A stretch of 64,000 nt of DNA from a candidate division WWE3 bacterium RIFCSPHIGHO2_01_FULL_42_13 (GCA_001772625.1 MEVA01000016.1:67159-131158), one strand, 5' to 3'; positions 8,586 to 30,787 are shown, counted from the first letter of the stretch. Numbers and translations are program-made. The notes: generated by a model not told the origin, from the sequence alone.

Positions 8586-9732
8586 TTATTATTTTTAATT
8601 CTTCCTCACCGACCAAACGCCAATCATACTGACGAGCAAAGTTCATACCTTTCTCTGAAAGAGTCTTGTGCAATTCCTTATCTTCAACAACCCTTATAAT
8701 CTCGTCTGCCATCCTTGTGTGGTCAAACAGCGGCACACGAATAATCATAGCTCCTAAATACGAAAACGCCGGGAGCTTGTAGGCAACTACGGGTGTGCCC
8801 AATGCCACGGCCTCAAGAACGGAAATCCCCCATCCCTCCTCGTGGCTTGCCGATATAAAAACCGCACTAGACTTAATTAATCTATATAAGTTTCTGGGCT
8901 GCAGCGGGCCTAACAGAATAATGTTATTGGTTAAGCCAACCTGCTTTATTTTACCTTTTAGCTGATTCGTAACCTCCACTGTACCACCCCCAGCAACAGC
9001 AACACACCAACTGGGGTGTTTTGCTACCACGCTAACCCAAATTTGAACAAGGTCAAAAATTCCTTTGGTTTCACGTAACCCTCCGGCAAAAGATGCCTCA
9101 AACCAATCTTTTTTAGGCACCGCAGCTTCAATCGCACTCATATTTATACCGTTTTTTACAAAATAATGCTTCCTAGGGCTTATTACACCAACAATACTCT
9201 GGCCCTCCGGCGTATCATAAACAAGCAGAGCATCTGAGAAGTAATGAACCACTCTAAAACCAACCCTTTGAAAAAGAAAGGATAGGAAATTAAATAAAAA
9301 GTTCCCGCTTCTTTTAAAAGGGCTCTTCGTTCTGTGATGGACCATGGAAACATATTTGGCGCCATAGATAATCTTGTAAAAAACCGCGGGGATCACGTCG
9401 CAAAAATAATCTGATGTTGAATAGACTACATCAGCACGAGGAAGTTTTCTAAAAACTACTAAATATAGTGAGTGTAAAGTAGAAATAAAATAAGAAACTA
9501 ACCTATCTAAATTTGAACTTTCTCTCTTCTTCCAAATGTGTGAAGCTACAACAAATTCTCCGTTAAACTTAAGCCCATTATTTCTATAGTTACCCAACCC
9601 CCCTAAGGTCGTCACGCAGTAGATTTTGCAACTTTTTCCTAAAATCCTCGCAGTCTCTATATGTCTGGCCGCGCCTCCACTTTGCACATCGCTTAAACCC
9701 GATCCATTATTTATATACAGAATGTTTTTCAT
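8575..9732 (-). CDS. Glycosyltransferase family 4 (GT-B fold)
   Basis: Track ORF 385 aa. The C-terminal EGWGISVLEAVALGTPVV motif is typical of GT4/GT1 retaining glycosyltransferases. Confidence 0.8.
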   Translation of the reverse strand: MKNILYINNGSGLSDVQSGGAARHIETARILGKSCKIYCVTTLGGLGNYRNNGLKFNGEFVVASHIWKKRESSNLDRLVSYFISTLHSLYLVVFRKLPRADVVYSTSDYFCDVIPAVFYKIIYGAKYVSMVHHRTKSPFKRSGNFLFNFLSFLFQRVGFRVVHYFSDALLVYDTPEGQSIVGVISPRKHYFVKNGINMSAIEAAVPKKDWFEASFAGGLRETKGIFDLVQIWVSVVAKHPSWCVAVAGGGTVEVTNQLKGKIKQVGLTNNIILLGPLQPRNLYRLIKSSAVFISASHEEGWGISVLEAVALGTPVVAYKLPAFSYLGAMIIRVPLFDHTRMADEIIRVVEDKELHKTLSEKGMNFARQYDWRLVGEEELKIINEI

Positions 9733-10523
9733 TTTCTCTCAGACACAGCAATTATATTGCTGGCTCCTTGTTTCACGTTAGAAAGCTTAGTGTCTTCCAG
9801 TTCTATTTGCTGCTCATCAAAAATAGGCAAAAACATATTCACCACAGTTTTTATAACTTTCTTAAAGTGTCCAGTGTAATAAATTTTTTTAGGATTCCAA
9901 TTACTTAACTTCTTAGCTAGAATTCCCTCGTCGTAGCGGCGTAAGTGCCCAATCCGCTTGTCATGAAAAATATTCAGGGGAATTAATAACTTATTAACAT
10001 ATTTGAGCGACAGCGGGACAGCTATAAAAGCGCCTGCGTTGTCTTTACACACTCTTTCCATCTCTTTTATTGCCTTTTCATCGCTGGGCAAGTGTTCCAA
10101 AACCGCGTTCGAGATGTAGTAATCAAAGCTCTTATCGTTAAAGGGAAGCTTTTGAACATCACAGCACATAAGCGCAACCCTGTCCGAAAGACCAAACTCT
10201 TCCACTATCCTCTTTAACCTTATTAAAGATCTAAGCGTCAAGTCCACACAAACAACATTGACCCCAAGCTTTGCCAGTTCTATCGTCATATATCCGGATC
10301 CTCCGCCTGCATCTAAAACCAACTTCCCATCTAAATTCGAAAAGTTCTCTGTAAATCTTTTAACATAGCTCTGCTGCCAGGGGGATAATTTATAGCTTTC
10401 GGTTTCTGTTATTTTTTCTTTTGAAAAATAATCTACCTGATGCTGCAAATGTTTTGAAAGTTGATCCTCTAAAAAAACAGGAATGCCATTAATGACCTCC
10501 TTTGGATTATGTTTAAGCACCAT
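9729..10523 (-). CDS. Class I SAM-dependent methyltransferase
   Basis: 264 aa. Motif I LVLDAGGGSGYMTIELA, downstream acidic residue (VCVDL) and a Methyltransf_11-like motif II. ATGA overlap with the upstream gene. Confidence 0.8.
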   Translation of the reverse strand: MVLKHNPKEVINGIPVFLEDQLSKHLQHQVDYFSKEKITETESYKLSPWQQSYVKRFTENFSNLDGKLVLDAGGGSGYMTIELAKLGVNVVCVDLTLRSLIRLKRIVEEFGLSDRVALMCCDVQKLPFNDKSFDYYISNAVLEHLPSDEKAIKEMERVCKDNAGAFIAVPLSLKYVNKLLIPLNIFHDKRIGHLRRYDEGILAKKLSNWNPKKIYYTGHFKKVIKTVVNMFLPIFDEQQIELEDTKLSNVKQGASNIIAVSERK

Positions 10524-11146
10524 TATTTCCTTGCTACAGCAACGTTATAAGCCAGAAGCGCTTCAGGCGAGAACGTTTCCATAAACCTTTCGTACAAATA
10601 AAAGATGGGGAGGAGCTTCTCTGGGTAAAAGTGGCATTCAAAAAACTTAAACTCTACGTCATCAAACACACCTCTGATAATCTTTTTAAAATACTTCTGG
10701 GTAAAATGTTGATGGCCCAACATCAAAACCATGTGCGGGTAAAAAAGCGGATTAAACCTATTTCCTTCAACTACAATAACACTACCTCCTGGTTTCACAA
10801 CGCGCTTTGCTTCTTTTAGACCAAGTAGATGCATTTCGTAAGACTGGTTCTTTTCGTCAACATGATGTAACACATCATGCATGTATACATAGTCAAAAGT
10901 ATTGTCTTTAAATGGAAGTTTTAATACGCCATTTTTATCTTCAATAAACTTAAGACCTTTAACATTAGTAATTTCAGGATTTGTGTAAACATCAACGCCA
11001 TAAGTGACTAGCTTAAACTTTTTTATAAAAACCTCGGCGTCTTTGCCATCACCACACCCAATATCTAGTATTTTTCTCCCTTTCTCGAAGTCAAAATTAA
11101 GCTTGTTAAAAAAGTCTGTTCTGTACTGATCAAACATTTTATTCAT
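10523..11146 (-). CDS. Class I SAM-dependent methyltransferase
   Basis: 207 aa. Motif I ILDIGCGDGKDAEVF and downstream GVDV. Confidence 0.75.
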   Translation of the reverse strand: MNKMFDQYRTDFFNKLNFDFEKGRKILDIGCGDGKDAEVFIKKFKLVTYGVDVYTNPEITNVKGLKFIEDKNGVLKLPFKDNTFDYVYMHDVLHHVDEKNQSYEMHLLGLKEAKRVVKPGGSVIVVEGNRFNPLFYPHMVLMLGHQHFTQKYFKKIIRGVFDDVEFKFFECHFYPEKLLPIFYLYERFMETFSPEALLAYNVAVARK

Positions 11147-11732
11147 AAACCACTTTAATGCACTTTTCTACTAAATTTGTTACGTTGTGTGAACTGGGCA
11201 GGGGCACAAGATTAGTATTACGAAGCAGGTTAGCATAGATTCCACGCAGTTTCATGTGAAATTCCTTATCATGCACATAACCCGTTTCTCTTACCAGTAC
11301 TTCTTGAGAAGAAGCCATTAGTAAAAATCCGAAATCTGATCTTGGTATCATTTTCAAATAAATCCGAGCAGTTCTTTCGCTTAAAAACCCATGCAACACA
11401 TATCCTACAGTCCTATCGTAAAAGTAACGATCGCACACTACTACATAACGCATTAAACTCAGTAACCTCAAGTACAAGTAGTTCGCCCAAACATCAATAA
11501 TTGTGGTTACTACCAATAACTGCTCCCACAGGGCTCTTTTCTTATAATCTAGTTTTACATTATACCCCCTGCTATCGGTTTTTCTTACTGCTTTAAAAAG
11601 GGGTTCTAAAAGAAAATACCTGCTGATATGTATATATATTACTTTCCTTTTTTTACTTAAAAGCTCTTTATATAACCTTCCCGCTAGAGTTGTTTTCCCC
11701 GAACCGTCAGGGCCGCTAATCGAAATTATCAC
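11139..11732 (-). CDS. P-loop kinase of the thymidylate-kinase family (substrate unknown)
   Basis: 197 aa. Walker A ISGPDGSGKTTL. A DRY-type motif VVCDRYFYDRTVGYV resembles the TMK DRY/AYQ region. Confidence 0.5.
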   Translation of the reverse strand: MIISISGPDGSGKTTLAGRLYKELLSKKRKVIYIHISRYFLLEPLFKAVRKTDSRGYNVKLDYKKRALWEQLLVVTTIIDVWANYLYLRLLSLMRYVVVCDRYFYDRTVGYVLHGFLSERTARIYLKMIPRSDFGFLLMASSQEVLVRETGYVHDKEFHMKLRGIYANLLRNTNLVPLPSSHNVTNLVEKCIKVVYE

Positions 11733-12802
11733 AGTAAACTCCTGTATAAACTGTAAACCTCTTTGCTGATCCCAGCTATATTGTGGGCGTTTCTTACAAA
11801 TTTTGCCGCATCGGCTGTATCCAAATTCCTCTTTTCTTCTAAGGTTTTAATAGCTAAATTTAGTTGCTTCGGCGACGATGCTTCATAGATTAAACAATGT
11901 TTCGCGATATCTTCAAGAGCATAGATGTTTGAAAGTATGCAAGGCGACCCATATGCAACAGCCTCCAAAGTGGTAAGCGGAACACCTAACGTACCTTGCC
12001 GGCTGGTATTAGCTTGAACATAGATAGTTTCAGGTCCAAATATCTTTGCGACATCAAAATTACCAACTTTAACCTCTATATCAGCTTTACCTACTAACTT
12101 CCGTACTTTTTCCAGGTTAGAAGAGAAAGAAACATCTCTTACCTCCTTCCCGTAAGTATATATATAGAATTTGAGTGTGCTTCCCGCTTCAAGTCTCATT
12201 TTGGCAGCGGATATAAAGACATCAACCCCTTTTCTTTTTTCCAAAGACCCTAGAAATACAACCTTTTTAGGCATTTTTGGTATAACTTCCCCTTCTTCAA
12301 CCTTGTTAAAATCTACTCCTAAGGGAATGTACAAAACATTTTTGAAATTAAGCCTTGAGTACGTATTTCTATCAGTTGCGACAAGCTTATCTAGTAAGAA
12401 ATTCCCAAAATTAAGTTTAGGTGACCCTAAAAAAGTCTCATTTATTGTGACCAAGGAGTGGACACTTCTAGCTTTCAAAGACTTACCGAGTACGCCTGTG
12501 AGACCCCCAAGGAGCGGCAACGAAGAAAAATCGTGGACAATATCATACCTTCCTTTTATGAAACTTAAGGCTTTTTTGTAAGCTAAAAGCCGGAACTCAA
12601 ACAAACCGCCGGCTTTTAGGTAGTGAAATTTCAAATTACCATAATCTTGTACGGCCTTCCCATCCTCTGTTATATAACTTAGTACATCTATCGCCACCCC
12701 ATCCATGCCGGATAAGCCTTGTAGTAGCGCGTAAATGGCCTTATTCCCAGACATCTCAATGTACGGATAACATAAATTGGAACAAATTACTAAAACTTTC
12801 AT
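11729..12802 (-). CDS. Glycosyltransferase family 4
   Basis: 357 aa. GT-B-like, with C-terminal TLEAVAYGSPCILSN resembling the EX7E region. Confidence 0.7.
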   Translation of the reverse strand: MKVLVICSNLCYPYIEMSGNKAIYALLQGLSGMDGVAIDVLSYITEDGKAVQDYGNLKFHYLKAGGLFEFRLLAYKKALSFIKGRYDIVHDFSSLPLLGGLTGVLGKSLKARSVHSLVTINETFLGSPKLNFGNFLLDKLVATDRNTYSRLNFKNVLYIPLGVDFNKVEEGEVIPKMPKKVVFLGSLEKRKGVDVFISAAKMRLEAGSTLKFYIYTYGKEVRDVSFSSNLEKVRKLVGKADIEVKVGNFDVAKIFGPETIYVQANTSRQGTLGVPLTTLEAVAYGSPCILSNIYALEDIAKHCLIYEASSPKQLNLAIKTLEEKRNLDTADAAKFVRNAHNIAGISKEVYSLYRSLL

Positions 12803-13785
12803 AAAGATGAGAAACTAAACCAGTGATCGTAATAGGGCAGTCGATCATTGTTAATAAAATACCTTAAAAAAGCAAAATGGTAGTATGCAAAATCGTAAAG
12901 CGGAAGCTTTCCTTGATTAATCAGAATTTCAAAAAGCTGTCTCCAAACTTCTGTGTAGCTTATGAATGCAGGCATCTCCGTATTAATACCTATCTTTCCG
13001 ATGGTTGAGACGAGATTATTAAAAGTTTTCTCCCAGCCAAACTTTCTGACCTGCTCTCTAACTATATTTAAATTAAGGTTCTTGCTCTCAAGTATGCTCT
13101 TAACTGCAAAGTAGTCTAAAAGTGTTACGTAGTATCGTTCATACATAAGCTGCTTCGCATTAAGTAATAAATCTGCTTCCAAAGATGGGCACAAACATCT
13201 AGTGCCGTTTATTTCTCTGTCTTTAGGGTTTCTCCAAACAAAATCAAGATCAATATGCTCTAACCCCTGCCAATAAAACTTTCTGTGCAAGTCAATATTC
13301 AGAAGCCCCTCTTTTCTACAATTCCTCTGATGCAAGCCTTGTTTTCTTGGATGTGAAAATATCTTACAACCAGCCTCTCTTAAAAGAGTTTGGGCGTTGT
13401 GAAAGTCTTCGTAGTGAACTAGAACATCCACATCAAAGGTTACGTAATCTAAAAACTTAAAAGTTTTTACAACCAAATAATTAACCCCCCGCCCACGCAA
13501 ATTCTTTTCCAGAAAGTCTATCGTGTCGGTAAATTTTCTAATCTCCAACGCACCAGCATCTAATATCTTTTTAAGGTCGGATTCTTTTTTACTATCAAGT
13601 TCTACCAACTTTTCCTGTAAATACCGGCTGGTGGTATATAAAACTCTATTTTGTGATAAATACTTTAAAAAGGCCACCCACTCTTCAGAACTTAGACTAT
13701 TTATCCATTTAGAATAGTCAAAGTCTTCCTGTCCGAGTGTAGAATTAAAAACTTTATTTGCGTTTCGTACTAAAGATTCTTTCAT
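12799..13785 (-). CDS. Hypothetical protein, possibly nucleotidyltransferase-fold (NTP_transf_5-like)
   Basis: 328 aa. FDVDVLVHYEDF resembles a GS...D.D nucleotidyltransferase core. Assignment is weak. Confidence 0.3.
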   Translation of the reverse strand: MKESLVRNANKVFNSTLGQEDFDYSKWINSLSSEEWVAFLKYLSQNRVLYTTSRYLQEKLVELDSKKESDLKKILDAGALEIRKFTDTIDFLEKNLRGRGVNYLVVKTFKFLDYVTFDVDVLVHYEDFHNAQTLLREAGCKIFSHPRKQGLHQRNCRKEGLLNIDLHRKFYWQGLEHIDLDFVWRNPKDREINGTRCLCPSLEADLLLNAKQLMYERYYVTLLDYFAVKSILESKNLNLNIVREQVRKFGWEKTFNNLVSTIGKIGINTEMPAFISYTEVWRQLFEILINQGKLPLYDFAYYHFAFLRYFINNDRLPYYDHWFSFSSL

Positions 13786-14617
13786 AAACCAATCCTATAA
13801 GAACTGCCGCACTTTCAACAAACTTCAAGAAAATAAAACCTAGTGTTAAAAGGGGGTGGCTTAGCAAGCGTTTCCAGTTCCTTATGTAGGCAGTACGGAA
13901 AAAGGGTATCTGCCTTCTCACATTTTCATTCCCAACCTGTAAGTACTTATTTAGCTTTCTTCCATAATAAAACTTTCCTATAAAAGCATCCTTTACACTG
14001 TAATTATCAAGATTATGATGCATGACCGACCTATTCCTCACTAAAATATATCCCTCTTTTCTAAGTCTGTAAGCAATATCCCAGTCCTCACCCGCAACTA
14101 AATTTGTATTGAAACCACCTACCTTCTTAAAGGCACTTCTTCTTATAAACCAAGGGGACTCTAAGTCGTCATCTCCGTCATAGCAGATTCTTTCCAGGTT
14201 TTTGGCTTTTACCCAAAAGCCACTTCCTTTATGCCGCAGGGGTATCATAACCCCGTCTGCCCCACCTTGGCACAACTCAACACACTCCTTAATTACATTC
14301 TTTTCTAACTCACAATCTGAATCCAGAATTAAAACATACTCTCCTCGGGAGTTGCTAACCCCAAAATTCTTTTGGTCGGATCTTTCCGGCCCTTTATTTA
14401 ACACTTGTGTATTAAATTCCTGGGCAATTTGCCTAGTACCATCACTTGAATCATTATCAACAATCAATACCTCAAGTTTTTCATAAGACTGGGCAAAAAC
14501 TTTTTCTAATACTACTCTTAAATGTTTTGCAGAATTTTTAGTGGGTATTATTACCGAAACTAAACTATCTAGTTTCATAGTTTCCTTATAGGAGCCCTTT
14601 GGACTTGTACCAATCAA
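13754..14617 (-). CDS. Glycosyltransferase family 2
   Basis: 287 aa. VSVIIPTKNSAKHL...LEVLIVDNDSSDGT with DxD-type motifs (DSDCE). Confidence 0.8.
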   Translation of the reverse strand: MIGTSPKGSYKETMKLDSLVSVIIPTKNSAKHLRVVLEKVFAQSYEKLEVLIVDNDSSDGTRQIAQEFNTQVLNKGPERSDQKNFGVSNSRGEYVLILDSDCELEKNVIKECVELCQGGADGVMIPLRHKGSGFWVKAKNLERICYDGDDDLESPWFIRRSAFKKVGGFNTNLVAGEDWDIAYRLRKEGYILVRNRSVMHHNLDNYSVKDAFIGKFYYGRKLNKYLQVGNENVRRQIPFFRTAYIRNWKRLLSHPLLTLGFIFLKFVESAAVLIGLVYERIFSTKRK

Positions 14618-15608
14618 TAGATTTTTGTATTCCGTCTTTTAATGAAACTGTGGGCTTGTAGTGAAGTAATCTTTTGGCCTTTTCACACTCATACACATTT
14701 ACATCCTTAGACATCCATTCTGAGGCCGTTCTGGAAAATGGAGGGAAGATACCTACTATCTTGCTGAGAAACTCTGTAACTACGCCTATGTAGTACCCCA
14801 CCTTAGGATGAAGCTTTAGGCGCGGCCTAGCTACCCTTAGCTCATCTGCCATCGTATTTAAAACATCCTTAATTTTATATGGCTGACCATCAGTTATATT
14901 AAATGTTTCGCCAACTGCATTTCCATCTTTCTCAGCGAGTAACAATGCCTGAACAACGTTATCTACGTACGCGAATTCCATTTTTGCTTCCCCGCTATCA
15001 AAAATTGGAAAAATCCCTAACTTTACAAACTTAAACATAATTAATCTAACTAAACACCTAGGCCCGTAAACTAAACATGGTCTTACAACTATTACTGGAA
15101 TTTTGTGTTTATAGTGGTAGTGTAAAGCAATTCTTTCGCCCTCTCTTTTGGTTTGACCGTATTTTAACCCATCGTATTGATATTCATCCTCACTTAGCGG
15201 GTGGCCGTCCGGACTTACTCCCAAAACAGAAACTGTGCTTACATGCACAAATTTCTTGACACCAACCGCCTTAGCAGCCTCCAGTATATTTTCGGTTCCT
15301 TTAACATTGACGTCATAGTATTTTTCATCCGTCACAGCCATGGGTCTGGAGATACCAGCTAGATGAAAAACGGTATCACACCCTTTTATGGCTTCTTTTA
15401 GGCTTTCTGCATCTCGTAAGTCACCATAAATAATCTCGGCACCCAACTCCTCTAACAACCGCTCGTTTTCTTTCTCTATGGGCTCAAGAGGCTCTTTCAA
15501 TGCTAATACTTTGACCTGTCTTTCCTGCTCTAGAAGCCTTTCAGTCAGGTGGCTACCAATAAATCCCGTACCTCCGGTCACCAAAATCTTTTCCATTATT
15601 GTTTCCAT
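14586..15608 (-). CDS. NAD-dependent epimerase/dehydratase (extended SDR, nucleotide-sugar modifying)
   Basis: 340 aa. VTGGTGFIGSHL Rossmann motif, STVSVLG, and catalytic YGQTK (YxxxK). Confidence 0.85.
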   Translation of the reverse strand: METIMEKILVTGGTGFIGSHLTERLLEQERQVKVLALKEPLEPIEKENERLLEELGAEIIYGDLRDAESLKEAIKGCDTVFHLAGISRPMAVTDEKYYDVNVKGTENILEAAKAVGVKKFVHVSTVSVLGVSPDGHPLSEDEYQYDGLKYGQTKREGERIALHYHYKHKIPVIVVRPCLVYGPRCLVRLIMFKFVKLGIFPIFDSGEAKMEFAYVDNVVQALLLAEKDGNAVGETFNITDGQPYKIKDVLNTMADELRVARPRLKLHPKVGYYIGVVTEFLSKIVGIFPPFSRTASEWMSKDVNVYECEKAKRLLHYKPTVSLKDGIQKSIDWYKSKGLL

Positions 15609-16633
15609 TCCTTTCTGCTTAATTCAGCGTTATTAAAAACCGAAACTAATGTCCCCAAGCTGTATTCCCACAACGTAACAAGACAAGCCAGAGGATGAAA
15701 AAACCACGCCGAATCTTTTTTTTTCATGTACCCCCGAATGGTTTGTATCACAAGCGGAAAAAAAGTCAGGCAGTAAAATACAAAAATTACAACTGCCTTA
15801 AAACTTCTGGATGACACATCAACTAAACGCCACTCATATTCCCTATTATCAACATTACGATGAAATAAGTAATCTCTAACTCTTCTTCTTTGCTTCCTCG
15901 CAAACTTTCCAATATCACGCTCACAGTAAGTGTGTATGATTCCATTCTTTACTTTAATAAATACTGCCGCACCACTTTTTTTTATATAAGAAGCCAAAAT
16001 ATCTATATCAAACAAGTAACTCCCTCTTAGATTTTCCTTCAAAAATTGTGTTCTAAAAACGGTACCGTTAGCACCAATTGTGGGAAGGTTCGTGGAGTTA
16101 AACTTTACTAGCAAATAACTTCCTTTATCTTGTTCGTCTCTTGCGACTTCCGTCCACTTTCCCGTAAGAAGGTTTACACGATCATAATTACCTAAAAAAT
16201 GAACAAACGGGTCATTCATTCCAATCAAAGCACAGTATCTTGTTATAAAACCATCTTTCTTTCTCCAAGTATATTTCCAGGGTTCACTACCTACAGCCGC
16301 GGGCTCTTTCATAAGTGGCCCAACCATTTCCTGCAACCAGGTATTGGTGGGCAAGATGTTATCGGAATCAACAAGGGCGATTAATTCCCCACCTGCCGCC
16401 CCCACACCTACGGCTTTGCCTGCTTCAGCTGTTTTTAGATCGTTTTTTACTATTTTTGCCCCAAATTTTGCTGCAATTGCTAAAGTGTCGTCGATAGAGC
16501 CCCCATCGGCAACAATTATCTCAACTTTCTCTTTTGGATAGTCTTGGGAATCAATTGACTCTAAACAAAACCGCAATACACTTGCGGCGTTAAGTGTAGG
16601 CACAACTATTGAAACTTTAGGTAAATTAATCAC
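15596..16633 (-). CDS. Glycosyltransferase family 2
   Basis: 345 aa. VSIVVPTLNAASVL...VEIIVADGGSIDDT. GTG start. Confidence 0.75.
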   Translation of the reverse strand: MINLPKVSIVVPTLNAASVLRFCLESIDSQDYPKEKVEIIVADGGSIDDTLAIAAKFGAKIVKNDLKTAEAGKAVGVGAAGGELIALVDSDNILPTNTWLQEMVGPLMKEPAAVGSEPWKYTWRKKDGFITRYCALIGMNDPFVHFLGNYDRVNLLTGKWTEVARDEQDKGSYLLVKFNSTNLPTIGANGTVFRTQFLKENLRGSYLFDIDILASYIKKSGAAVFIKVKNGIIHTYCERDIGKFARKQRRRVRDYLFHRNVDNREYEWRLVDVSSRSFKAVVIFVFYCLTFFPLVIQTIRGYMKKKDSAWFFHPLACLVTLWEYSLGTLVSVFNNAELSRKEWKQ

Positions 16634-16692
16634 GTTATTATTCTATCTTTTAGGCAGAGGGAAGGCTAGGAAGATATACCTAAATCTTGTTA

Positions 16693-16721
16693 AGCATGTT
16701 ACATTCTAGCCTGTTCTGGCA
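16693..16721 (-). promoter_or_regulatory. Weak sigma70-like promoter candidate for the minus-strand operon starting at 16633 (-10 TAGAAT, -35 TTTAAA, 17-nt spacer)
   Basis: The reverse complement of 16693..16698 is TAGAAT. The -35 is weak (TTTAAA). Confidence 0.25.
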
Positions 16722-16745
16722 GTAATTTAAACAAGTTAAAGAAGT

Positions 16746-16774
16746 TTGACTAAAAAGACAATGGCCTGTAGAAT
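16746..16774 (+). promoter_or_regulatory. Sigma70-like promoter: -35 TTGACT (16746..16751), 17-nt spacer, -10 TAGAAT (16769..16774)
   Basis: Read directly. It lies about 65 nt upstream of the GTG start at 16839, which is preceded by AAAGGAGAGG. Confidence 0.45.
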
Positions 16775-20688: not shown

Positions 20689-20691
20689 TAG

Positions 20692-23939: not shown

Positions 23940-24007
23940 GGCTACGCTTTTTCTTAAGCAAATATAGACTACCGTATATATGAGAATGCGTCAAATTGGG
24001 TATGTGG

Positions 24008-25291
24008 TTAGTATCCAAGCTCGCCCAAAATTAACGGGTCAGTGCCAAGGATAGCTAAGTTTAACGGGTTGTCTCCATCTCCTATCAGTACTCCTAGTAC
24101 AATTACTTCGTCCTCTCCTATAACATGGTTTGCGAAAGAATATATTCTGTAAGACGGGTCTCTAACCCCCGAATATCTCGTAGCATCAAGTAACAGCAAT
24201 TCTTCAAGCTTCCCAGTTTCGATATTAAACCTGCTAAGGTTTTCGTACCTTGCGGTAACTTCGACTACACGTCCAATATTGTTACAGGAATAAAATCCGC
24301 TGGCTACACTTCTGCTAGTTACAAAGTAGATATCGCCATTGAAAATTTCTGCACGTACGGAAAAGTCGTCAGTTTCTACACTAACTAACTCCCTTTCGCT
24401 CTCCAAGTTATCGGGGCTTACAATAAAAAATTCGGAGGTACCTTCTTCAATAGCTCTTTGAACAATTAGGCTATCTTTATACCAGCCCTCAACATAAGAT
24501 CCTAAAACGTAACCACCATAAGGTAGTTCAATTACTTTATTTTCTTTAAGATCATAAATCATATACCCTATCCCCTCCCAAAACCCTTTCGATAGCAAAA
24601 TTTTACTGCCGTCGCCTGAAAATTCCGGACTGTGGTATGCCCAAACGCCCCCTATCCCCTCCTCTTTCATCCCTGTATCGAAAATTTCTTTAATGGTGCC
24701 CGTCTTTAAGTCGTAGATATTTAAACCTGTGCTAGTGGTGATTGCCAATAGATTCCCGTCTGGGGAAAATCCAACATCAACCAGACTTAGAGTGTAGCCC
24801 ACATCACCGCTGCTTATTTCCTTCATTGTATGCACGGATGTTAAAGTTCCAGTTGTGAAGTCGTACACGAAAGCGGTATCTGTTTTTTGCTCCTCGTCAC
24901 CCTCGGCCGTTTCTACATAGATAAAAGCTATTTTATTTTCATTTTTGGACAAAGAATAAGAAGCAACCTCTCCTCCAAGTTTGTTGATCAAGCTGTCAAA
25001 AGTTTTCCGCCCGAAAAGTAATTTAAACTTTTCCCTTTGCGCATCAGATTTAACAACTAATGTTCTCGAAACATTAAGCTTAGTTTTATTTCTGTATGGA
25101 AATATCACGGAACAGATATTGCTTATGGTGTCTTCTGTTAAAGTTGTGTTGCTGAGTGAATAATATGAGTAATACAAGTAAGCACCGTAGGCAACAGCTC
25201 CTAACAAAAAGATAATAACGATGATGCCAACAACAAAAGCTTTGTTTCTACCTATACTTTTTGGTGCCTTTTCAAAAGCTTCCACTTCCAC
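24008..25291 (-). CDS. N-terminally membrane-anchored protein with TolB/PD40-like beta-propeller repeats, hypothetical
   Basis: 427 aa. TM helix at residues about 20-42. Repeated SPDG.../GDG... blades (FSPDGNLLAITT, SPEFSGDGSKILL). Confidence 0.35.
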   Translation of the reverse strand: MEVEAFEKAPKSIGRNKAFVVGIIVIIFLLGAVAYGAYLYYSYYSLSNTTLTEDTISNICSVIFPYRNKTKLNVSRTLVVKSDAQREKFKLLFGRKTFDSLINKLGGEVASYSLSKNENKIAFIYVETAEGDEEQKTDTAFVYDFTTGTLTSVHTMKEISSGDVGYTLSLVDVGFSPDGNLLAITTSTGLNIYDLKTGTIKEIFDTGMKEEGIGGVWAYHSPEFSGDGSKILLSKGFWEGIGYMIYDLKENKVIELPYGGYVLGSYVEGWYKDSLIVQRAIEEGTSEFFIVSPDNLESERELVSVETDDFSVRAEIFNGDIYFVTSRSVASGFYSCNNIGRVVEVTARYENLSRFNIETGKLEELLLLDATRYSGVRDPSYRIYSFANHVIGEDEVIVLGVLIGDGDNPLNLAILGTDPLILGELGY

Positions 25292-25303
25292 TGGAAAATT
25301 CTA

Positions 25304-26278
25304 TCACGAAAACTGTCTGAAGACTTCATATTTCTGTGATTGCTTAATTAAATCCTCGAGATGATACACGCAAACCCCCATGGACGGACTTTTTATGGCA
25401 TTTTCCAAGGATTGTTTAAATTCTTCTGTGCTAATTTCCCCACCTTCATTTACTGATTGGATTAAAGGCAAAAACGCCTTTCCCAGCTGCCAGTAATACT
25501 CAACCATCTCCCCTATCCAACTTACATCTTTACCTAACATTTTGTGAAAAAGCCCCGGGCTAAAAATATCTATCAAAGGTATAAGCTTACTAAAATCCTG
25601 CGCGACAACTCTTTGAATTCCCGCTCCATAATCTTTATCTTTCCACGGCACGATGAACATTCCCAGTTTTATTTCTTTTCCAGAAGCGGCAATTAACGCT
25701 TTAGCTTCCTCAACAAAAGAAACAACTTGCCCCGCCTTAAACTCCAACCATTCGTGGTAATAACTACCGTCAATATGAAGCGCGATGTTTTGTAATGCTG
25801 TGCCCTCGCCTCCAACTCCCGCAATTGGTTCGCCAATATATTCTTCAAACATCTTAAGACACCTTTCGCAGTAACACGTGTCTAAAATATCCGGGTTAGC
25901 ACTTTCCCAAGATGTCGGGTATCTCATATGGTTTAGCCAAACTCCTTGAACATCGTTCTCCAAAACTCTTTTTATTTCTTCCAAGCGGTTCTTTCTTACT
26001 CCCGGGTGGGTTGGGCATATACCGATTAGCGGATCGCTGATTGTATCTTTATCGTTAGAATCAACCGCTTTTGCGTCAGGGTACTTTTCAAGTAGGTCTT
26101 TCCCGGCAAAAACAATGACACTTGCGTAAATTTCAACTTGTCCAAGTTTTTCTTTTATTTGCGAGGTTGTTTGCGGCGAAATATTTTCGGAACTTACTAG
26201 GACTGAATTTAAATTTAATTGAGAGGCCCCCTCTAAAACAGAATCTTCAACATTTAGTAAAAATCCGGATTTATGCAT
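25304..26278 (-). CDS. Hypothetical protein (324 aa), unknown function; possibly TIM-barrel hydrolase-like
   Basis: Track ORF only. No signal peptide and no recognisable catalytic motif. Confidence 0.3.
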   Translation of the reverse strand: MHKSGFLLNVEDSVLEGASQLNLNSVLVSSENISPQTTSQIKEKLGQVEIYASVIVFAGKDLLEKYPDAKAVDSNDKDTISDPLIGICPTHPGVRKNRLEEIKRVLENDVQGVWLNHMRYPTSWESANPDILDTCYCERCLKMFEEYIGEPIAGVGGEGTALQNIALHIDGSYYHEWLEFKAGQVVSFVEEAKALIAASGKEIKLGMFIVPWKDKDYGAGIQRVVAQDFSKLIPLIDIFSPGLFHKMLGKDVSWIGEMVEYYWQLGKAFLPLIQSVNEGGEISTEEFKQSLENAIKSPSMGVCVYHLEDLIKQSQKYEVFRQFS

Positions 26279-26554
26279 CTATTTCTCCGGTTGCTTCTCC
26301 GGCCAAATTTGATTACCTTGCAAGTCTTCAACAATAATTGCCGTAGTTGGACAGGATTTGGCCGCCTCAATAATATCTACCGCCTCATCCCACGTGCCTT
26401 CCTTAACATACGCAATGCCGTCATCATCTAAATCAAAGGTGCCTGGCGCTCTGATAATACAGGTAGCCGCGCTTATACAAAGTGAATTTATAACTTTTAT
26501 TTTAAGTTTAGAGTTAGGGTTTATTGCGAACTGATTTTGACCGTTTTTGTCCAT
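26279..26554 (-). CDS. Small single-cluster ferredoxin
   Basis: 91 aa. CISAATC...(about 40 aa)...CP cysteine pattern, typical of mono-cluster [3Fe-4S]/[4Fe-4S] ferredoxins. Confidence 0.6.
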   Translation of the reverse strand: MDKNGQNQFAINPNSKLKIKVINSLCISAATCIIRAPGTFDLDDDGIAYVKEGTWDEAVDIIEAAKSCPTTAIIVEDLQGNQIWPEKQPEK

Positions 26555-26565
26555 ATGTTTTCTAG

Positions 26566-28398
26566 TTAACCGCCTAAATAATTTCCAGTATTTATGTCTA
26601 CCGACCTTAATTGTAACTTAGGGCGCTTAAGTAGACCAATAATAAAATTTATTCCGTACACGATATGGGTTAGGATTATTCCTACAAAAACTAAAAGCCC
26701 GGAAATTGGATTTAAGTCTTCAATTGCGACACCTGCGGCTCTTCGCAAGATAAGGAAAAGATAAATTCCCACAACCGTAAAGTATAAATACCACAGCACC
26801 GGAAAGAAACTCGAAACAATTGGGCCTAATACTAACCCTAAAACGAAAAGTGTGGGCATAAAGTAAAATAGCAATCTTGAAGTTTCGGGAAAAAGTCTTG
26901 CAAACTGTCCCCTGTGCTGCCCGTACCGCGAAATTTGTTTTAAGTAGGGCAAGAATATTTTTCTTCTGTGATGGTAAACAATTGGTTTTGGGTCATAAGG
27001 AAAAGGACGCCTAAATTTTTCCACCAAATCTAAACAAAGTTTAGTGTCTTCGCCTGGCCAAAACTCTGTAGTAAAACCACCAACACTTAAGAAGGCATCT
27101 CTTCTTACAAATAAGTTTACGGTCGGGTAATCACTTATAAACTGATGCTTTGTTGGTTTATGCCTAAAAATTGTATTTCCACTCACAAGGCTTGACTCAA
27201 GAAGCTTTCCGGCAATTCTTTCAAGAAAACTGGCTTTCGGAGGTGTTACCGCAGGCGCTCCTAAAGCGTAAGTGTTTGAATTCTTAAAAACTTCGGCGGC
27301 CAATTTTAGCCAATCTTTTTTTGGAAATGCGTCGTCATCCAGAAAGGCGAGAATATTTCCAGTTGCCACACCCGCTCCAATGTTTCTTTTTTCGCCGGGA
27401 CCTTTGTTACCAACAGCTATAAACCTAAATTTATCGCCCAAGTTTAGTTTTTTCTCTTCCACTTCATTAATCTCATCTACCAAAACTATTACTTCAAAAT
27501 ACGGATAGTCGAGTTTAGACAAATGGGCAAGACATTCTCTTAAATCTTTATTTAAACGTCTTGCCGTTACAATTACACTAAATTCGGGCTGTTCAATTTT
27601 TTCAAGTCTAATTTGAGATGCCAAAAACTGAGCGATTTCATGCTGTATCCATTTATGCTCATTGCCATCGTCGTAATATTTCAAAATCTTCAGACGATAA
27701 AAAACAGCTAAGGTGTCGTTCATCATTCGTTGTATGAAAGAGTCCAGGAACAAAAATTTGGAAAAGGTTGTGTGGTCAAAGTTTAGGCTCAGCTCAATTG
27801 GCGCTTCGTATATTCTTCTAAAGCCAAGCCTGTGGGCTACAGCCAACATTTCTATATCAAAAGCAAACTCTTTTATTAAAAGTCTTGGCAAAACCGCATC
27901 CAAAACTTCGCGCTTAAATACCTTAAGACCTGCCTGTGTGTCTGTGAGTTTAAGATTAAATAAAAGCCGCGCAAGGGTGTAATACCCCCAACTGTAAAGT
28001 TTTCGCATAAATGGGTAATTTACTTTCGAAGCCGGATGGCGCTTACTTGCCACAACCACATCGGCCTTGTGCAAAAGCACGTGCTCTAGAAGAGTTGCAA
28101 TACTTTCTAGATTTATATCCACACCTGCGTCAATAAACGCAACATAATCACCACTGGCTTGAGTCATCCCATACTTAACAGCAAACCCCTTACCTTGATT
28201 TTGTTCGTAACCTACAACTTCAACATTATCCTTTTTTACTTTGGAAGCTTCTTCAAAAGTTTTGTCTAAAAGCCCGTCAACTACAACTATGATCTCAAAA
28301 TCCCACTTGGTTTTGGATAAAGCTTTGTGAACTTCTTCAATATTCTTTTTTATGGTCTTTTCCTGCTTATAGGCGGGAATTATTACCGATACTAACAT
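26566..28398 (-). CDS. Two-domain GT2 glycosyltransferase with C-terminal TM segments
   Basis: 610 aa. First GT2 domain VSVIIPAYKQ...IIVVVDGLLDKT...DAGVD. Second GT2 domain FSVIVTARRL...VIVLVDEINE...LDDDAF. Hydrophobic C-terminus. Confidence 0.75.
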   Translation of the reverse strand: MLVSVIIPAYKQEKTIKKNIEEVHKALSKTKWDFEIIVVVDGLLDKTFEEASKVKKDNVEVVGYEQNQGKGFAVKYGMTQASGDYVAFIDAGVDINLESIATLLEHVLLHKADVVVASKRHPASKVNYPFMRKLYSWGYYTLARLLFNLKLTDTQAGLKVFKREVLDAVLPRLLIKEFAFDIEMLAVAHRLGFRRIYEAPIELSLNFDHTTFSKFLFLDSFIQRMMNDTLAVFYRLKILKYYDDGNEHKWIQHEIAQFLASQIRLEKIEQPEFSVIVTARRLNKDLRECLAHLSKLDYPYFEVIVLVDEINEVEEKKLNLGDKFRFIAVGNKGPGEKRNIGAGVATGNILAFLDDDAFPKKDWLKLAAEVFKNSNTYALGAPAVTPPKASFLERIAGKLLESSLVSGNTIFRHKPTKHQFISDYPTVNLFVRRDAFLSVGGFTTEFWPGEDTKLCLDLVEKFRRPFPYDPKPIVYHHRRKIFLPYLKQISRYGQHRGQFARLFPETSRLLFYFMPTLFVLGLVLGPIVSSFFPVLWYLYFTVVGIYLFLILRRAAGVAIEDLNPISGLLVFVGIILTHIVYGINFIIGLLKRPKLQLRSVDINTGNYLGG

Positions 28399-28467
28399 TA
28401 TGGATATAGTACAACATATTCCAACTATGAGCGGGGCAGGAGTTTCAAAGTTGGCAGTTACTTAAAA

Positions 28468-29997
28468 TCAATACTCACCTAACCTATAAAGGTATATTTT
28501 GGGGTCTACAAAGATGCTGCCTGGGAAATTTATGGTCTTTTCCTCTATCAGTGTGTCGCAACACGCATACTCCTCGTTAACTTTCTGGCTATCGTAAGAA
28601 AAGTTATATAAATAATCGCGGGGGACATTCCTATAGTTTAGTTTCCACGCGTTTGTGCCTTTAATATACTTCTCCTCTATTCCTTCTGTTTTTGAGATTT
28701 CCTCCGACCTATTCCAAACATATTTATTTACTAAAACAAAATCGTTTGATAGTTGGTATGAGAAAAACATAAGAAATAAAACAAATCCCGAAAGAATTAC
28801 TTTAGAGTACTTACTTTCTTGAAAATAATCTTTTAGCAAAAATAACAAAATGGTTGGAATTAGAATATGAAGGTATCGATCATAGAAAGCTTTTGTAGCA
28901 ATAAGCATACCCGTATAAACTACAGCCAAAACTAAGTAGAGATTTATGGCCTTTCTTTTAAAGACAATGACGTAAGACACAAATATAGGAAAAAGAATTT
29001 TGGAAACTAAGTCCCAGTAGCGATACAAATCATAATTTCCCTTAAAGTAATACTTGGTCCCACTTATACCTCTTGGATAAAACCCCGTGCGCTCAAAAGT
29101 ATTCTCAAAATATGGGAACTCGCCCCAAGAAACTTCATGCGGGTTAAAATTACTAATCATTAAAAAGTATAGCCCTACCGCAAGAGCTAAAAATAACAAC
29201 ACATGCTTTTTTTTACTTAATATCTCTTTTATGTTAACAGAACTTAAAAATACGGGTAGCAAAAAGGCCGTAAGTACAATAAAAGTGCCTATAAACACAG
29301 CGGCAACATAATCTTTATCCAAAAGGTTTTTCCACTGCAGCGGAACCTCAATAATCCTTGGGGTTAGGGGAAATATTTTTTCGTAATAAAAGTAGAGAGC
29401 ACCAAACGTAATAAGACTTACTGCAGCTGGCTTCCAATTTTGTTTGTACGAGTAAAATAATCCAAGGCCTAACGGAATAAAAAGAGAGACCTGCCTTACA
29501 TTCAAACCGGCAAAGACAACAAGGGCCATAAGAGCCAGGTATTTATAATTTTTAGTTTCATCAAACAATAAGATGCACCAAAGGCTTAGTAAAAAGAAAA
29601 ACATAAAATATACCTCTGTCATAAATCCAAAGGTTAAATACATATTTAAAGGATTGAAAAAATAAATGAGCCCCACTAACACGGAGGTCGAGAATTGCTT
29701 TTTCATTCTATACAAAATAAACGCTGACAACAGGTAAAAGTTAGCGACAGAAAAAAGCAAAGTTAAAATGGGCAGTTTTTCTAGAGAGAATATTCTTGCA
29801 AAGCCTGCAGCAATCAAACCTTGGGTGTAAAACGTGGGGCCAGTGTAGGGGTGCAGAGTAAAATCCCCCTTCATAAACCTTGAAACCATTTCATAGTAAA
29901 CCCAATCATCATTTTGATAAAAATCTATTTTGTTTGAAAGCGTAAACACAAGCATAAAAAGAGCCAGTGTTATAAGCAAAAGCCATAATTTCTTCAT
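28468..29997 (-). CDS. Polytopic membrane protein, GT-C-fold glycosyltransferase-like (ArnT/PMT-type)
   Basis: 509 aa, about 11-13 TM segments. Extracytoplasmic first loop with acidic motif (YQNDDWVYYE). Confidence 0.45.
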   Translation of the reverse strand: MKKLWLLLITLALFMLVFTLSNKIDFYQNDDWVYYEMVSRFMKGDFTLHPYTGPTFYTQGLIAAGFARIFSLEKLPILTLLFSVANFYLLSAFILYRMKKQFSTSVLVGLIYFFNPLNMYLTFGFMTEVYFMFFFLLSLWCILLFDETKNYKYLALMALVVFAGLNVRQVSLFIPLGLGLFYSYKQNWKPAAVSLITFGALYFYYEKIFPLTPRIIEVPLQWKNLLDKDYVAAVFIGTFIVLTAFLLPVFLSSVNIKEILSKKKHVLLFLALAVGLYFLMISNFNPHEVSWGEFPYFENTFERTGFYPRGISGTKYYFKGNYDLYRYWDLVSKILFPIFVSYVIVFKRKAINLYLVLAVVYTGMLIATKAFYDRYLHILIPTILLFLLKDYFQESKYSKVILSGFVLFLMFFSYQLSNDFVLVNKYVWNRSEEISKTEGIEEKYIKGTNAWKLNYRNVPRDYLYNFSYDSQKVNEEYACCDTLIEEKTINFPGSIFVDPKIYLYRLGEY

Positions 29998-30037
29998 ACT
30001 ATAATGATATACTTTCTCAGGAAGCTACGAAAGAGAA

Positions 30038-30787
30038 ATGAACTATAAAGAGTATGAAAACATGGAAAAATTCGAGAAGAGCTACTGGTGGCATAGAGGC
30101 CGCCTTTATTTGCTGGAAAAATTAATTAATTCCCACTTCCAAAAAAAGAGAGGTGACGCCCAGCTACTTGAGGTTGGGTCTGGAACTGGCGAGACCGTTA
30201 AGTTTCTATCTAATTTCGGAAAAGTTACTGGGATCGACGTTTCAGAAAGGGCCGTTGAGTTTTGTAGAAGTAAAGGATTAGAAAATATAATTCTGGGAGA
30301 TATAAATGAGCTTGACCTTTCGGAACACAAAAATACGTATGACGCTGTTTTTGCCCTTGATACCATGGAGCACATACAAGATGACGTAGGGGCAATGAAA
30401 AGGATAAACGAGATGTTAAAAGAGGAGGGACTTCTCTTTCTTACCGTTCCCGCACACAAATTCTTATGGAGTGAGCATGATGAGGCGCTTCATCACAAAA
30501 GAAGGTATCACTCTCTTGAACTTTTACAGAAACTTAGAGACGCGGGGTTTGAGCCAATAAAAAAATCGTACTTTGTTTTTACGGCATTTTTTCCCATCTT
30601 GTTTTTTAGAACCTGGAATACCGTGTTTGGTAGAAGCGCCTACCCAAAAACTTCGTATGTAATGCTACCAAAAATCCTCAATGACTTTGCAACAAACGTT
30701 TTGAAATTAGAGGCAAAGATCATTCAAAAGATAAATTTTCCTATAGGGACAACGATTGTAGCGGTTGCAAAAAAGCCTAAGATTTAA
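30038..30787 (+). CDS. Class I SAM-dependent methyltransferase
   Basis: 249 aa. LLEVGSGTGETVKFL, FALDTMEHI, and LKEEGLLFLTVP. Confidence 0.8.
   Translation: MNYKEYENMEKFEKSYWWHRGRLYLLEKLINSHFQKKRGDAQLLEVGSGTGETVKFLSNFGKVTGIDVSERAVEFCRSKGLENIILGDINELDLSEHKNTYDAVFALDTMEHIQDDVGAMKRINEMLKEEGLLFLTVPAHKFLWSEHDEALHHKRRYHSLELLQKLRDAGFEPIKKSYFVFTAFFPILFFRTWNTVFGRSAYPKTSYVMLPKILNDFATNVLKLEAKIIQKINFPIGTTIVAVAKKPKI

Follow-up and report, generated by a model that had tools for sequence, protein, structure and literature searches.

The methyltransferase region and its locus

The region that carries six class I SAM methyltransferase (MTase) genes and one radical SAM gene is, with reasonable probability, the decoration-rich middle of an envelope-glycan locus, in which the MTases would methylate different positions, chiefly sugar hydroxyls, and the radical SAM protein would perform a core step. 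The surface glycan is probably heavily methylated. The host is a candidate division WWE3 (Patescibacteria, CPR) bacterium from groundwater. Based on Pfam scans and gene spacing in the window (the whole stretch of 64,000 nucleotides that was analyzed), the locus extends over ∼48 kb (1151..48773, minus strand); the minus strand carries long runs of overlapping genes, and housekeeping genes were found from ∼49 kb on. The locus encodes two giant membrane proteins (1151-4840 and 5154-8585), a phosphoglycosyl transferase (43683-44285, plus strand), a UDP-glucose dehydrogenase, two Wzx-type flippases, an LPG_synthase_TM protein, three PMT_2 GT-C proteins and a DUF2079 protein, together with GT4 and GT2 glycosyltransferase (GT) genes. 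According to the Pfam matches, the MTase genes are surrounded by GT2/GT4 glycosyltransferases, SDR epimerases, Wzx flippases and GT-C membrane proteins.

The first-pass annotation had placed six class I SAM MTases in a glycan locus, and all six open reading frames were recovered there with Pfam matches above cut-off. Methyltransf_11/23/25 were matched by every protein well over the gathering scores (E = 1e-14 to 1e-19), and Methyltransf_11 scores of 53-71 bits (Pfam cut-off 21.2) assign them to class I. The class was also checked by the glycine-rich motif I (E/D-x-G-x-G-x-G) and the acidic residue ending strand beta-2: LDAGGGSG, LDIGCGDG, LDVGCGTG, LDVGCGDG and LEVGSGTG were read from the sequence of five MTases, and the acidic residue was present in all six. 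TM-like segments were predicted in none of them. Pairwise identity among the six was 23-33% over partial alignments; thus, in line with the first-pass annotation, they are not recent duplicates. Nor did profile searches place any of them in a housekeeping family, since no cut-off of the NCBIfam equivalogs UbiG, UbiE/MenG, BioC, CmoM/CmoB, RlmA, PrmA and PrmC was reached and the best matches (UbiG, UbiE, BioC, CmoM) scored 38-58 bits against cut-offs of 103-366 (103-420 over all families compared). The TylC3-type C-MTase, with its zinc-binding N-terminal domain and C-methyltransferase C-terminal domain, was not represented either, Methyltransf_13 and Methyltransf_14 being absent from all six window MTases in Pfam. 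The density of MTases is above chance: they account for six of 20 genes in this region and for none of the 32 genes in the rest of the window (Fisher p = 0.002, a post hoc test), and the number expected in 21 kb from the mean rate of 42 homologous loci was 1.4 (Poisson P(≥6) = 0.003, likewise post hoc).

Besides sugars, members of the Methyltransf_11/23 families methylate lipids, proteins, RNA and small molecules. The MTases of the window are likely to act on glycan, given that four of them are packed tightly with same-strand GT genes and that GT2-MTase fusions occur in relatives. By origin they form three groups, namely the conserved MT2-MT1 pair, the WWE3-wide MT6 and the lineage-specific MT3, MT4 and MT5. 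Co-transcription with the GT genes, with operons deduced from gene spacing alone, is suggested for MT1, MT2, MT3 and MT4 by tight packing on the same strand, whereas MT5 and MT6 each stand alone on the other strand and therefore cannot share a transcript with them. For the methylated lipid carrier that had also been suggested, nothing was found in support.

The MT2-MT1 pair and its cassette

MT1 (9729..10523, minus strand; 264 aa; Methyltransf_11, E = 1.5e-19) belongs to a family of ∼290 aa proteins with a fused Trm112-like N-terminus, whose homologues are 41-55% identical across Patescibacteria. The window MT1 is without the first ∼25 residues, and the zinc ribbon at the N-terminus of the family is partly missing from it. 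The best fold matches of its AlphaFold model (pLDDT 96.7) were RebM and AtmM (PDB 3bus, 6uv6), sugar 4'-O-MTases of indolocarbazole glycosides, with TM-scores of 0.62-0.67, E of about 1e-15 and identity of 17-20%; AtmM was also a sequence-level PDB match. In this comparison, which covered MT1 alone, TleD, MitM and SpnF were almost equal to AtmM and RebM (E = 1e-14 vs 1e-15). The Trm112-like ribbon remnant of MT1 has no counterpart in RebM and AtmM.

MT2 (10523..11146, minus strand; 207 aa; Methyltransf_11, E = 4.4e-14) is the conserved partner of MT1, and the two genes overlap by 1 bp. Overlaps of 1-8 bp join the pair to its neighbours in a 12-gene run with five GT genes, among them a GT4 gene (8575-9732) that overlaps MT1 by 4 bp. 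MT2 orthologues with 50-60% identity were found directly upstream of MT1-like genes in loci L089, L090 and L091, and another (58% identity) was found in L094. The cassette of the pair further includes a GT2 (15596..16633, minus strand; 345 aa; Glycos_transf_2) and an epimerase-GT4 fusion (17678..19915, minus strand; 745 aa; Epimerase and Glycos_transf_1), the N-terminal half of which is a CDP-tyvelose-2-epimerase-like SDR and the C-terminal half a GT4. In L089 and L091 the epimerase and the GT4 are separate adjacent genes, 69-74% and 33-67% identical to the respective halves. Copies of the cassette GT2 (52-62% identical) adjoin the MT2-MT1 pair in L089 and L090, and this GT2 was detected at ≥45% identity in 15 of the 42 related WWE3/Microgenomates loci that hold the radical SAM gene and served as the comparison set. 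Three further sources, one genome each from WWE3 and Moranbacteria and a contig of Patescibacteria type, combine MT2-MT1 with the same epimerase, GT4 and GT2. Thus, a cassette of tyvelose-2-epimerase-like SDR, GT4, GT2, MT2 and MT1 occurs across Patescibacteria, and giant membrane proteins usually come after it.

The epimerase half resembles the CDP-tyvelose 2-epimerase TyvE (PDB 1orr, 9rl0) at 135-136 bits, with GalE or RmlB-type enzymes next at about 76 bits. Unlike TyvE, it shares one polypeptide with a GT4. One enzyme of this type, TaTyvE, catalyses the interconversion of CDP-glucose and CDP-mannose (PMC13098431). Genes for a CDP-sugar pyrophosphorylase were not recognised anywhere in the window. 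The MT2-MT1 cassette suggests a hexose that carries two methyl groups and may have the manno configuration.

MT3, MT4, MT5 and MT6

MT3 (20011..20688, minus strand; 225 aa; Methyltransf_23, E = 2.1e-19) and MT4 (20692..21417, minus strand; 241 aa, or 234 aa from an alternative start; Methyltransf_11, E = 3.9e-17) are separated by 3 bp and form a same-strand unit in the order MT4-MT3-epimerase/GT4. Both are lineage-specific: the best relatives of MT3 elsewhere were only 40-47% identical, and those of MT4 in the fetched loci did not exceed 34%, the best being half of a tandem double MTase in L044. MT5 (21481..22212, plus strand; 243 aa; Methyltransf_11, E = 8.5e-17) is flanked by MT4 and the radical SAM gene and is encoded on the other strand, with relatives of 34-40% identity in six related loci. 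Its motif I is a variant, LDLGCDDG (GCDDG), common to two homologous loci. Given this atypical motif and the partial zinc ribbon of MT1, not all six MTases need be active. MT3, MT4 and MT5 lie downstream of the radical SAM gene, where the locus is variable, and such lineage-specific additions resemble the turnover typical of surface-antigen loci.

MT6 (30038..30787, plus strand; 249 aa; Methyltransf_11, E = 1.1e-15) is also on the opposite strand, with a polytopic membrane protein on one side and a Wzx flippase on the other. Orthologues with ∼50% identity were found in many WWE3 genomes, and MT6 is convergent with a polytopic membrane protein in both other genomes examined (L092, L093). The orthologue lies inside a glycan locus in L092.

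The radical SAM protein and the conserved core

The radical SAM gene (22218..23939, minus strand) encodes a protein of 573 aa that matched PF04055 at 63 bits. Its class B architecture (N-terminal Rossmann domain and radical SAM barrel) agrees with the first-pass class B description; the B12-binding Pfam match was 26.8 bits and hence below the cut-off of 32.1. The Cys motif C249-x4-C254-x2-C257 is invariant in 14 homologues, with a spacing of CX4CX2C vs the canonical CX3CX2C. The best NCBIfam profile was HpnJ (TIGR03471, E = 1e-42; 146.6 bits), followed by BchE (90.9 bits); both align over residues 44-490, that is, for HpnJ, nearly the full length, and both scores are far below the cut-offs. 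The protein was accordingly rejected as an HpnJ equivalog (cut-off 577.6). The best methylase family was PhpK at 62 bits. HpnJ, BchE and OxsB are non-methylases of the class B radical SAM family (PMC9204698). For the AlphaFold model, the best PDB neighbours, all of class B layout, were AprD4, MgmA, TsrM, OxsB, CysS and TokK. The top neighbour is AprD4 (PDB 6fd2; Foldseek E = 4e-16, TM-score 0.57-0.70, identity 15%), a radical SAM 1,2-diol dehydratase whose substrate is an aminoglycoside sugar and not a cobalamin-dependent methylase, which was also one of two sequence-level PDB matches. The NCBIfam AprD4 model scored 40.6 bits against a cut-off of 500, and no AprD3-like reductase partner was identified.

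This is the most conserved gene of the glycan locus; species genomes gave 526 matching stretches, the best 80 of which were 61-84% identical to it. Upstream of it lies a ferredoxin gene (26279..26554, minus strand; 91 aa; Fer4_13/15 domains on the identical gene in L001), which was likewise upstream in 32 of the 42 related loci (median identity 58%) and whose product is likely to be the electron donor of the radical SAM protein. The adjoining double GT2 glycosyltransferase (26566..28398, minus strand; 610 aa; two Glycos_transf_2 domains) has three C-terminal hydrophobic helices, with TM-like segments at residues 506, 527 and 557, and was present in 31 of the related loci (median identity 52%); Wzx was kept in 32. 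Thus, radical SAM protein, ferredoxin and double GT2 constitute the conserved core of the locus in WWE3/Microgenomates, apart from the variable methylation set. Two unannotated minus-strand genes, u324 (25304-26278) and u427 (24008-25291; an N-terminal TM segment and a beta-rich-looking sequence), separate the ferredoxin from the radical SAM gene, and neither had a Pfam or NCBIfam match. Genes like u324 were found in six of the 42 loci, with genes of similar size and position in L007 and L008; u427 gave no tblastn match in the 42.

Methyltransferases in related loci

A glycan this rich in methylation had been expected to be unusual for this type of organism. The related loci indicate otherwise: MTases lie no more than 10 kb from the radical SAM gene in 34 of the 42, with three or four of them in 10 loci (range 0-4), and a Moranbacteria locus has four MTases within 6 kb. 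Six MTases are therefore at the high end of the range and not an anomaly, multi-MTase clusters being common in relatives. No MTase orthologue above 41% identity was found in the 42 loci. Fusions were observed in related loci, joining GT2 to MTase (L036), hexapeptide transferase to MTase and GDP-mannose dehydratase to sugar C-MTase, and TylC3-type C-MTase domains were present in L036, L039, L042 and L046.

Alternative interpretations

It is unlikely that each of the seven enzymes is a methylase and that the B12-radical SAM protein attaches a C-methyl group to an unactivated carbon, yielding an exceptional O-, N- and C-methylated glycan. Class B architecture and the cobalamin-dependent methylases among the fold neighbours (MgmA, TsrM, CysS, TokK) would fit that role, as would a published sequence similarity network that groups the sugar/phosphonate C-methylases MoeK5 and Fom3 with HpnJ (PMC9204698). 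C-methylation of sugars does occur in relatives, though via class I TylC3-type enzymes. However, two non-methylase profiles outscore PhpK, a dehydratase tops the structural matches, the B12-binding match is under its cut-off, and the gene tracks the conserved core, not the MTases; the seventh methylation step initially assigned to this protein was accordingly not upheld.

We consider it very doubtful that some or all of the MTases are mere residents of the locus acting on membrane lipids, proteins or small molecules. Their family assignment is generic, with sub-threshold likeness to UbiG, UbiE, BioC and lipid MTases; in L093 the MT6 orthologue is surrounded by housekeeping genes and not part of a glycan locus, MT5 and MT6 are encoded on the other strand, and of 80 MT3-like metagenome contigs, many of them short, just 29 had a neighbour resembling a glycan gene of the window. 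Against this, MT1 and MT2 overlap GT genes, their pair keeps its epimerase, GT4 and GT2 neighbours across phylum-level lineages, relatives have the GT2-MTase fusions, and, to our knowledge, Patescibacteria are usually without quinone and de novo lipid synthesis. Terminal methyl caps are known in O-antigen and S-layer glycan synthesis, and at least one MTase might be a WbdD-like chain terminator that caps the non-reducing end with methyl or methyl-phosphate and thereby fixes chain length, instead of decorating each repeat unit. The phosphate could come from a P-loop (Walker A), small-nucleotide-kinase-like protein (11139..11732, minus strand; 197 aa), whose gene overlaps MT2 by 8 bp and which gave only weak thymidylate-kinase, APS-kinase and AAA matches. 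This is highly improbable, since the P-loop gene is absent from related loci, including every one with the MT2-MT1 pair, the window holds two Wzx flippases instead of a Wzm/Wzt ABC transporter, and the WbdD kinase has a protein-kinase fold, not a P-loop.

Implications for the envelope glycan

For the favoured reading, a decoration set around a separate core step, each MTase would transfer the methyl group of SAM to a different position, chiefly a sugar hydroxyl, on lipid-linked oligosaccharide or nucleotide-sugar intermediates at the cytoplasmic side. Methylation would precede flipping by Wzx, with assembly outside by GT-C enzymes, and the radical SAM protein would carry out one radical step on a core sugar, which may be ring contraction or rearrangement (as HpnJ), dehydration (as AprD4) or C-methylation. 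Multi-MTase tailoring sets are known from mycobacteria, in glycopeptidolipid loci (rhamnose O-MTases) and in the two-MTase cluster for methylmannose polysaccharide, and from spinosyn (SpnH/SpnI/SpnK), and in such systems each MTase serves one sugar position. These sets share with the WWE3 locus several mutually divergent class I MTases among GT genes, whereas the WWE3 locus belongs to an uncultivated CPR host and has Wzx flippases and many GT-C membrane enzymes.

HpnJ converts hopanoid glucosamine to a cyclitol ether by ring contraction. The substrate of HpnJ, like that of the archaeal calditol synthase Cds, is a hexose that a glycosyltransferase has attached to a lipid (PMC13459092). The WWE3 radical SAM gene shares its run with the membrane-anchored double GT2, the ferredoxin and the two unannotated genes lying between them; no hopanoid genes were seen in the Pfam scans of the window. 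It is conceivable, if quite unlikely, that the double GT2, the ferredoxin and the HpnJ-like radical SAM protein together remodel a hexose anchored in the membrane, the resulting head group being carbocyclic (cyclitol) or rearranged in another way; the proposal concerns a family of about 500 members in WWE3/Microgenomates species genomes. If true, a chemistry that has been proposed for hopanoids (HpnJ) and for the Sulfolobus calditol synthase would operate on the envelope glycoconjugate of ultra-small bacteria lacking hopanoid synthesis, and the variable MTases would decorate the remaining polymer.

The glycan locus and its methyltransferases

In Pfam scans, positions 1151-48773 emerged as a single, very large envelope-glycan locus, encoded almost entirely on the minus strand, in a member of WWE3, a candidate phylum of the Patescibacteria/CPR group. 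The locus encodes a UDP-glucose dehydrogenase, GT4 and GT2 glycosyltransferases (GTs), SDR epimerases or dehydratases, two Wzx-type flippases, an LPG_synthase_TM protein, three PMT_2 GT-C proteins, a DUF2079 protein, a small phosphoglycosyl transferase (43683-44285, plus strand; GC-rich, 0.49) and two giant membrane proteins without a Pfam family (1151-4840 and 5154-8585, both minus strand). From ∼49 kb onward the window carries housekeeping genes, among them those for RNase Y, RecA and GltX. The same locus was also detected on metagenome contigs from several samples.

The six class I SAM methyltransferase genes proposed by the first-pass annotation were all recovered, namely MT1 (9729-10523), MT2 (10523-11146), MT3 (20011-20688) and MT4 (20692-21417) on the minus strand, and MT5 (21481-22212) and MT6 (30038-30787) on the plus strand. 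Each product matched Methyltransf_11/23/25 far above the Pfam gathering score, and motif I and the acidic residue of beta-2 were recognisable in all six; MT5 carries a motif I variant, GCDDG, common to two homologues. Pairwise BLASTP identity was just 23-33%, mostly across the Rossmann core, so recent duplication was rejected, in agreement with the earlier annotation. Recent foreign origin was also rejected, as the GC content of these genes (0.36-0.41) is near that of the window (0.40). Resemblances to UbiG, UbiE, BioC and CmoM scored 38-58 bits versus curated NCBIfam cut-offs of 103-420; none of the six proteins reached a cut-off, and membership in the ubiquinone, biotin, tRNA or rRNA methyltransferase families, which would have spoken against the original proposal, was therefore rejected. 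The claimed density exceeds chance: methyltransferases make up 6 of the 20 genes in the region versus none of the window's other 32 (Fisher p = 0.002), and six occur in 21 kb versus 1.4 expected from the mean rate of homologous loci (Poisson P = 0.003), both tests being post hoc.

MT1 and MT2 belong to a series of twelve genes on the minus strand that extends from 16633 to 1151. Of its 11 junctions, 8 are overlaps of 1-11 bp, two are overlaps of 28-32 bp and the remaining one is a gap of 7 bp; the series has three GT4 or GT2 genes to either side of the pair. MT4 and MT3 are separated by 3 bp, and 95 bp downstream of this pair follows the gene in which an epimerase and a GT4 are fused. MT5 and MT6 are single genes on the opposite strand and cannot share a transcript with the GT genes; the neighbours of MT5 are MT4 and the radical SAM gene, those of MT6 a polytopic membrane protein gene and Wzx. 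Scans for consensus promoters and terminators yielded counts that did not exceed those of shuffled sequence, and operons were therefore inferred solely from gene spacing.

A methyltransferase cassette shared across Patescibacteria

The MT1 family (∼290 aa, with a fused Trm112-like N-terminus) is widespread in Patescibacteria. The N-terminus of MT1 itself is ∼25 residues shorter and is missing the cysteine pair that is nearly invariant in the family's Trm112-like zinc ribbon; this truncation is real and not an ORF-calling artefact, because a stop codon lies directly upstream. An MT2-like gene followed by an MT1-like gene was found in two genomes, one of WWE3 (L089) and one of Moranbacteria (L090), and on a 1.2-Mb Patescibacteria-type contig (L091), with identities to the window proteins of 48-53% (MT1) and 50-60% (MT2). 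In L089 and L091 the overlap between the two genes is 4 bp; in L090 the MT1-like gene lies 12 bp downstream. In all three, an epimerase and a GT4 gene precede the pair, together with a GT2 gene in L089 and L090; these are homologous to the window genes at 17678-19915 and 15596-16633. The pair is followed by genes for proteins of 881-1201 aa without a Pfam family. In the window, the cassette is interrupted by six inserted genes.

The epimerase and GT4 are fused at 17678-19915 (minus strand) into a single 745-aa ORF, and are separate adjacent genes in L089 and L091. The epimerase half, an SDR protein, is CDP-tyvelose-2-epimerase-like (135-136 bits versus 76 for the next match), and an enzyme of that family turns CDP-glucose into CDP-mannose (PMC13098431). 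These results are a hint, not a proof, that the cassette builds a methylated manno-configured residue.

Variation of the remaining methyltransferases

Orthologues of MT6 with ∼50% identity occur in many WWE3 genomes. The gene is convergent with a polytopic membrane protein gene in both other genomes examined, inside a glycan locus in one (L092) and among housekeeping genes in the other (L093). MT3, MT4 and MT5 have distant relatives only, and a metagenome scan with an MT3 alignment gave relatives of at most 47% identity and did not reveal a conserved MT4-MT3 pair.

For comparison, 42 related WWE3 and Microgenomates loci were counted, each with the full 10 kb on either side of the radical SAM gene. 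Class I methyltransferases within that span numbered none in 8 loci, one in 19, two in 5, three in 8 and four in 2; nearly all were downstream of the radical SAM gene, and none was more than 41% identical to MT3-MT6. The window, with four in the same span, therefore stands at the upper end of a continuous distribution. The suggestion that such richness is unusual for this type of organism was not borne out: glycan loci with several methyltransferases are a regular feature of Patescibacteria (34/42 related loci have at least one), and the count is no surprise for the lineage. In the related WWE3 loci L007 and L008/L025, other tailoring sets, including a sulfotransferase and a heptose-type pathway (SIS isomerase, GHMP kinase and nucleotidyltransferase), replace the variable genes of the window, which indicates that surface-glycan chemistry turns over rapidly among related genomes.

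The radical SAM protein and the conserved core

In Pfam, the radical SAM protein (22218-23939, minus strand, 573 aa) clearly has the PF04055 domain, and its B12-binding match falls below threshold. A protein from candidate division WWE3 bacterium RIFCSPHIGHO2_01_FULL_42_13 matches it at 100% identity. A PDB sequence search returned generic barrel matches only. HpnJ and BchE profiles aligned over nearly its full length, and the fold neighbours of its AlphaFold model (pLDDT 73.8) were AprD4, MgmA, TsrM, OxsB, CysS and TokK, which together support the class B architecture assigned at first pass. Its inclusion among the methylases was not supported, as the families it matches best, HpnJ and BchE, do not act as methylases (PMC9204698). 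Contraction of a lipid-linked hexose ring is the reaction proposed for HpnJ and for the archaeal calditol synthase (PMC13459092), and AprD4, the best structural neighbour, dehydrates a sugar diol. The structural neighbours also include cobalamin-dependent methylases, and a published network places MoeK5 and Fom3 in one cluster with HpnJ (PMC9204698). C-methylation by this protein is a tentative reading and the less probable one.

The cluster motif at residues 249-257 is C-x4-C-x2-C (DCWWNRCTFCVW), not the canonical CX3CX2C, and does not vary among 14 homologues (70-84% identity). The top 120 relatives in the database were 70-84% identical. Among species-representative genomes, 526 stretches matched, and the best 80 (61-84% identity) came from WWE3, Roizmanbacteria and other Microgenomates, some in records with implausible taxon titles. 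Many records titled 'uncultured Gammaproteobacteria', 'Pseudomonadales' or 'Saccharibacteria' (L042, L047, L051 and others) carry the family; these titles are probably placeholder taxonomy, because the identity (61-67%) about equals that of Roizmanbacteria records.

Upstream of the radical SAM gene, the window order was retained for the ferredoxin (26279-26554, minus strand) in 32/42 loci, the double GT2 (26566-28398, minus strand) in 31/42, Wzx in 32/42 and the three PMT_2 genes in 24-25/42. The radical SAM gene was the most conserved of the core genes (68% median identity across the 42 loci). Since this gene is kept whereas the methyltransferases vary from 0 to 4 and are at most 41% identical to MT3-MT6, the two differ in evolutionary behaviour. 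Adjacency and conservation suggest the ferredoxin (91 aa) as the obvious electron donor to the radical SAM protein.

Other unannotated genes

Two unannotated genes, u324 (25304-26278) and u427 (24008-25291), both on the minus strand, are inserted between the ferredoxin and radical SAM genes, which are close together in most relatives. For u324, a faint TIM-barrel glycosidase hint was obtained, a PDB sequence search gave noise only, and several WWE3 loci have a gene of comparable size at a comparable position; u427 has an N-terminal transmembrane segment and a beta-rich-looking sequence. A relaxed Pfam scan of the unannotated genes gave nothing significant, with Glyco_hydro_42 (E = 0.086) as a hint.

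The two giant proteins (1229 and 1143 aa) are paralogous, with a small 114-aa gene (4813-5157) between their genes. In each, 8-10 N-terminal transmembrane segments are followed by a large central region and an anchor at the C-terminus; the relaxed scan gave a faint GT-C_AftD hint (E = 0.17), and a PDB sequence search with the 5154-8585 product found no match. A clear homologue (1201 aa) follows the methyltransferase pair in L089, weaker ones occur in the related records L092 and L097, and genes of similar size without Pfam matches follow the methyltransferase genes in L090 and L091.

The 197-aa Walker A protein (11139-11732, minus strand), whose gene overlaps MT2 by 8 bp, resembles thymidylate/APS kinases, with weak kinase hints in a PDB sequence search; no counterpart was found in related loci. 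It might phosphorylate a sugar or nucleotide. A 236-aa ORF (16839-17549, plus strand) with a GC content of 0.51 versus 0.40 for the window lies on the opposite strand amid the glycan gene run. Pfam and NCBIfam gave no match for it, and none of the 42 related loci contains it; it may be a foreign insertion.

Discussion

Glycan methylation best explains the six class I methyltransferases, and on the basis of their context we favour it with moderate confidence. Related loci contain fusions of GT2 with Methyltransf_11, of hexapeptide transferase with methyltransferase, and of GDP-mannose dehydratase with TylC3-type sugar C-methyltransferase, as well as tandem double methyltransferases and free-standing TylC3-type enzymes. 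The closest folds to the MT1 model (pLDDT 96.7) were the glycoside sugar 4'-O-methyltransferases AtmM and RebM, by a narrow lead over non-sugar methyltransferases; PDB sequence searches with MT1 and MT3 gave generic Rossmann-core matches only. Hydrophobic segments are absent from all six proteins, consistent with action in the cytoplasm before flipping.

The comparison divides the locus into three parts: a conserved core (flippases, GT-C enzymes, double GT2, ferredoxin and radical SAM protein), a portable cassette (epimerase, GT4, GT2 and two methyltransferases) and fast-changing extra methyltransferases. The by-product of most interest is the core formed by the double GT2, the ferredoxin and the radical SAM protein, which is conserved and uncharacterised; within it, the radical SAM/ferredoxin pair is the most conserved and least understood step of the locus.

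A literature search on glycan methylation in WWE3 or Patescibacteria found nothing relevant, and a broader one on O-antigen methyltransferases was of no help; to our knowledge the cell-envelope glycan of WWE3 or Microgenomates has had no chemical description so far. Their surface chemistry matters because these organisms are believed to depend on other cells or to live attached to them. The three-part division predicts surface sugars that are methylated, and would hence be more hydrophobic and glycosidase-resistant, and that differ between close relatives; such differences fit the expectation for antigens under phage or host selection.
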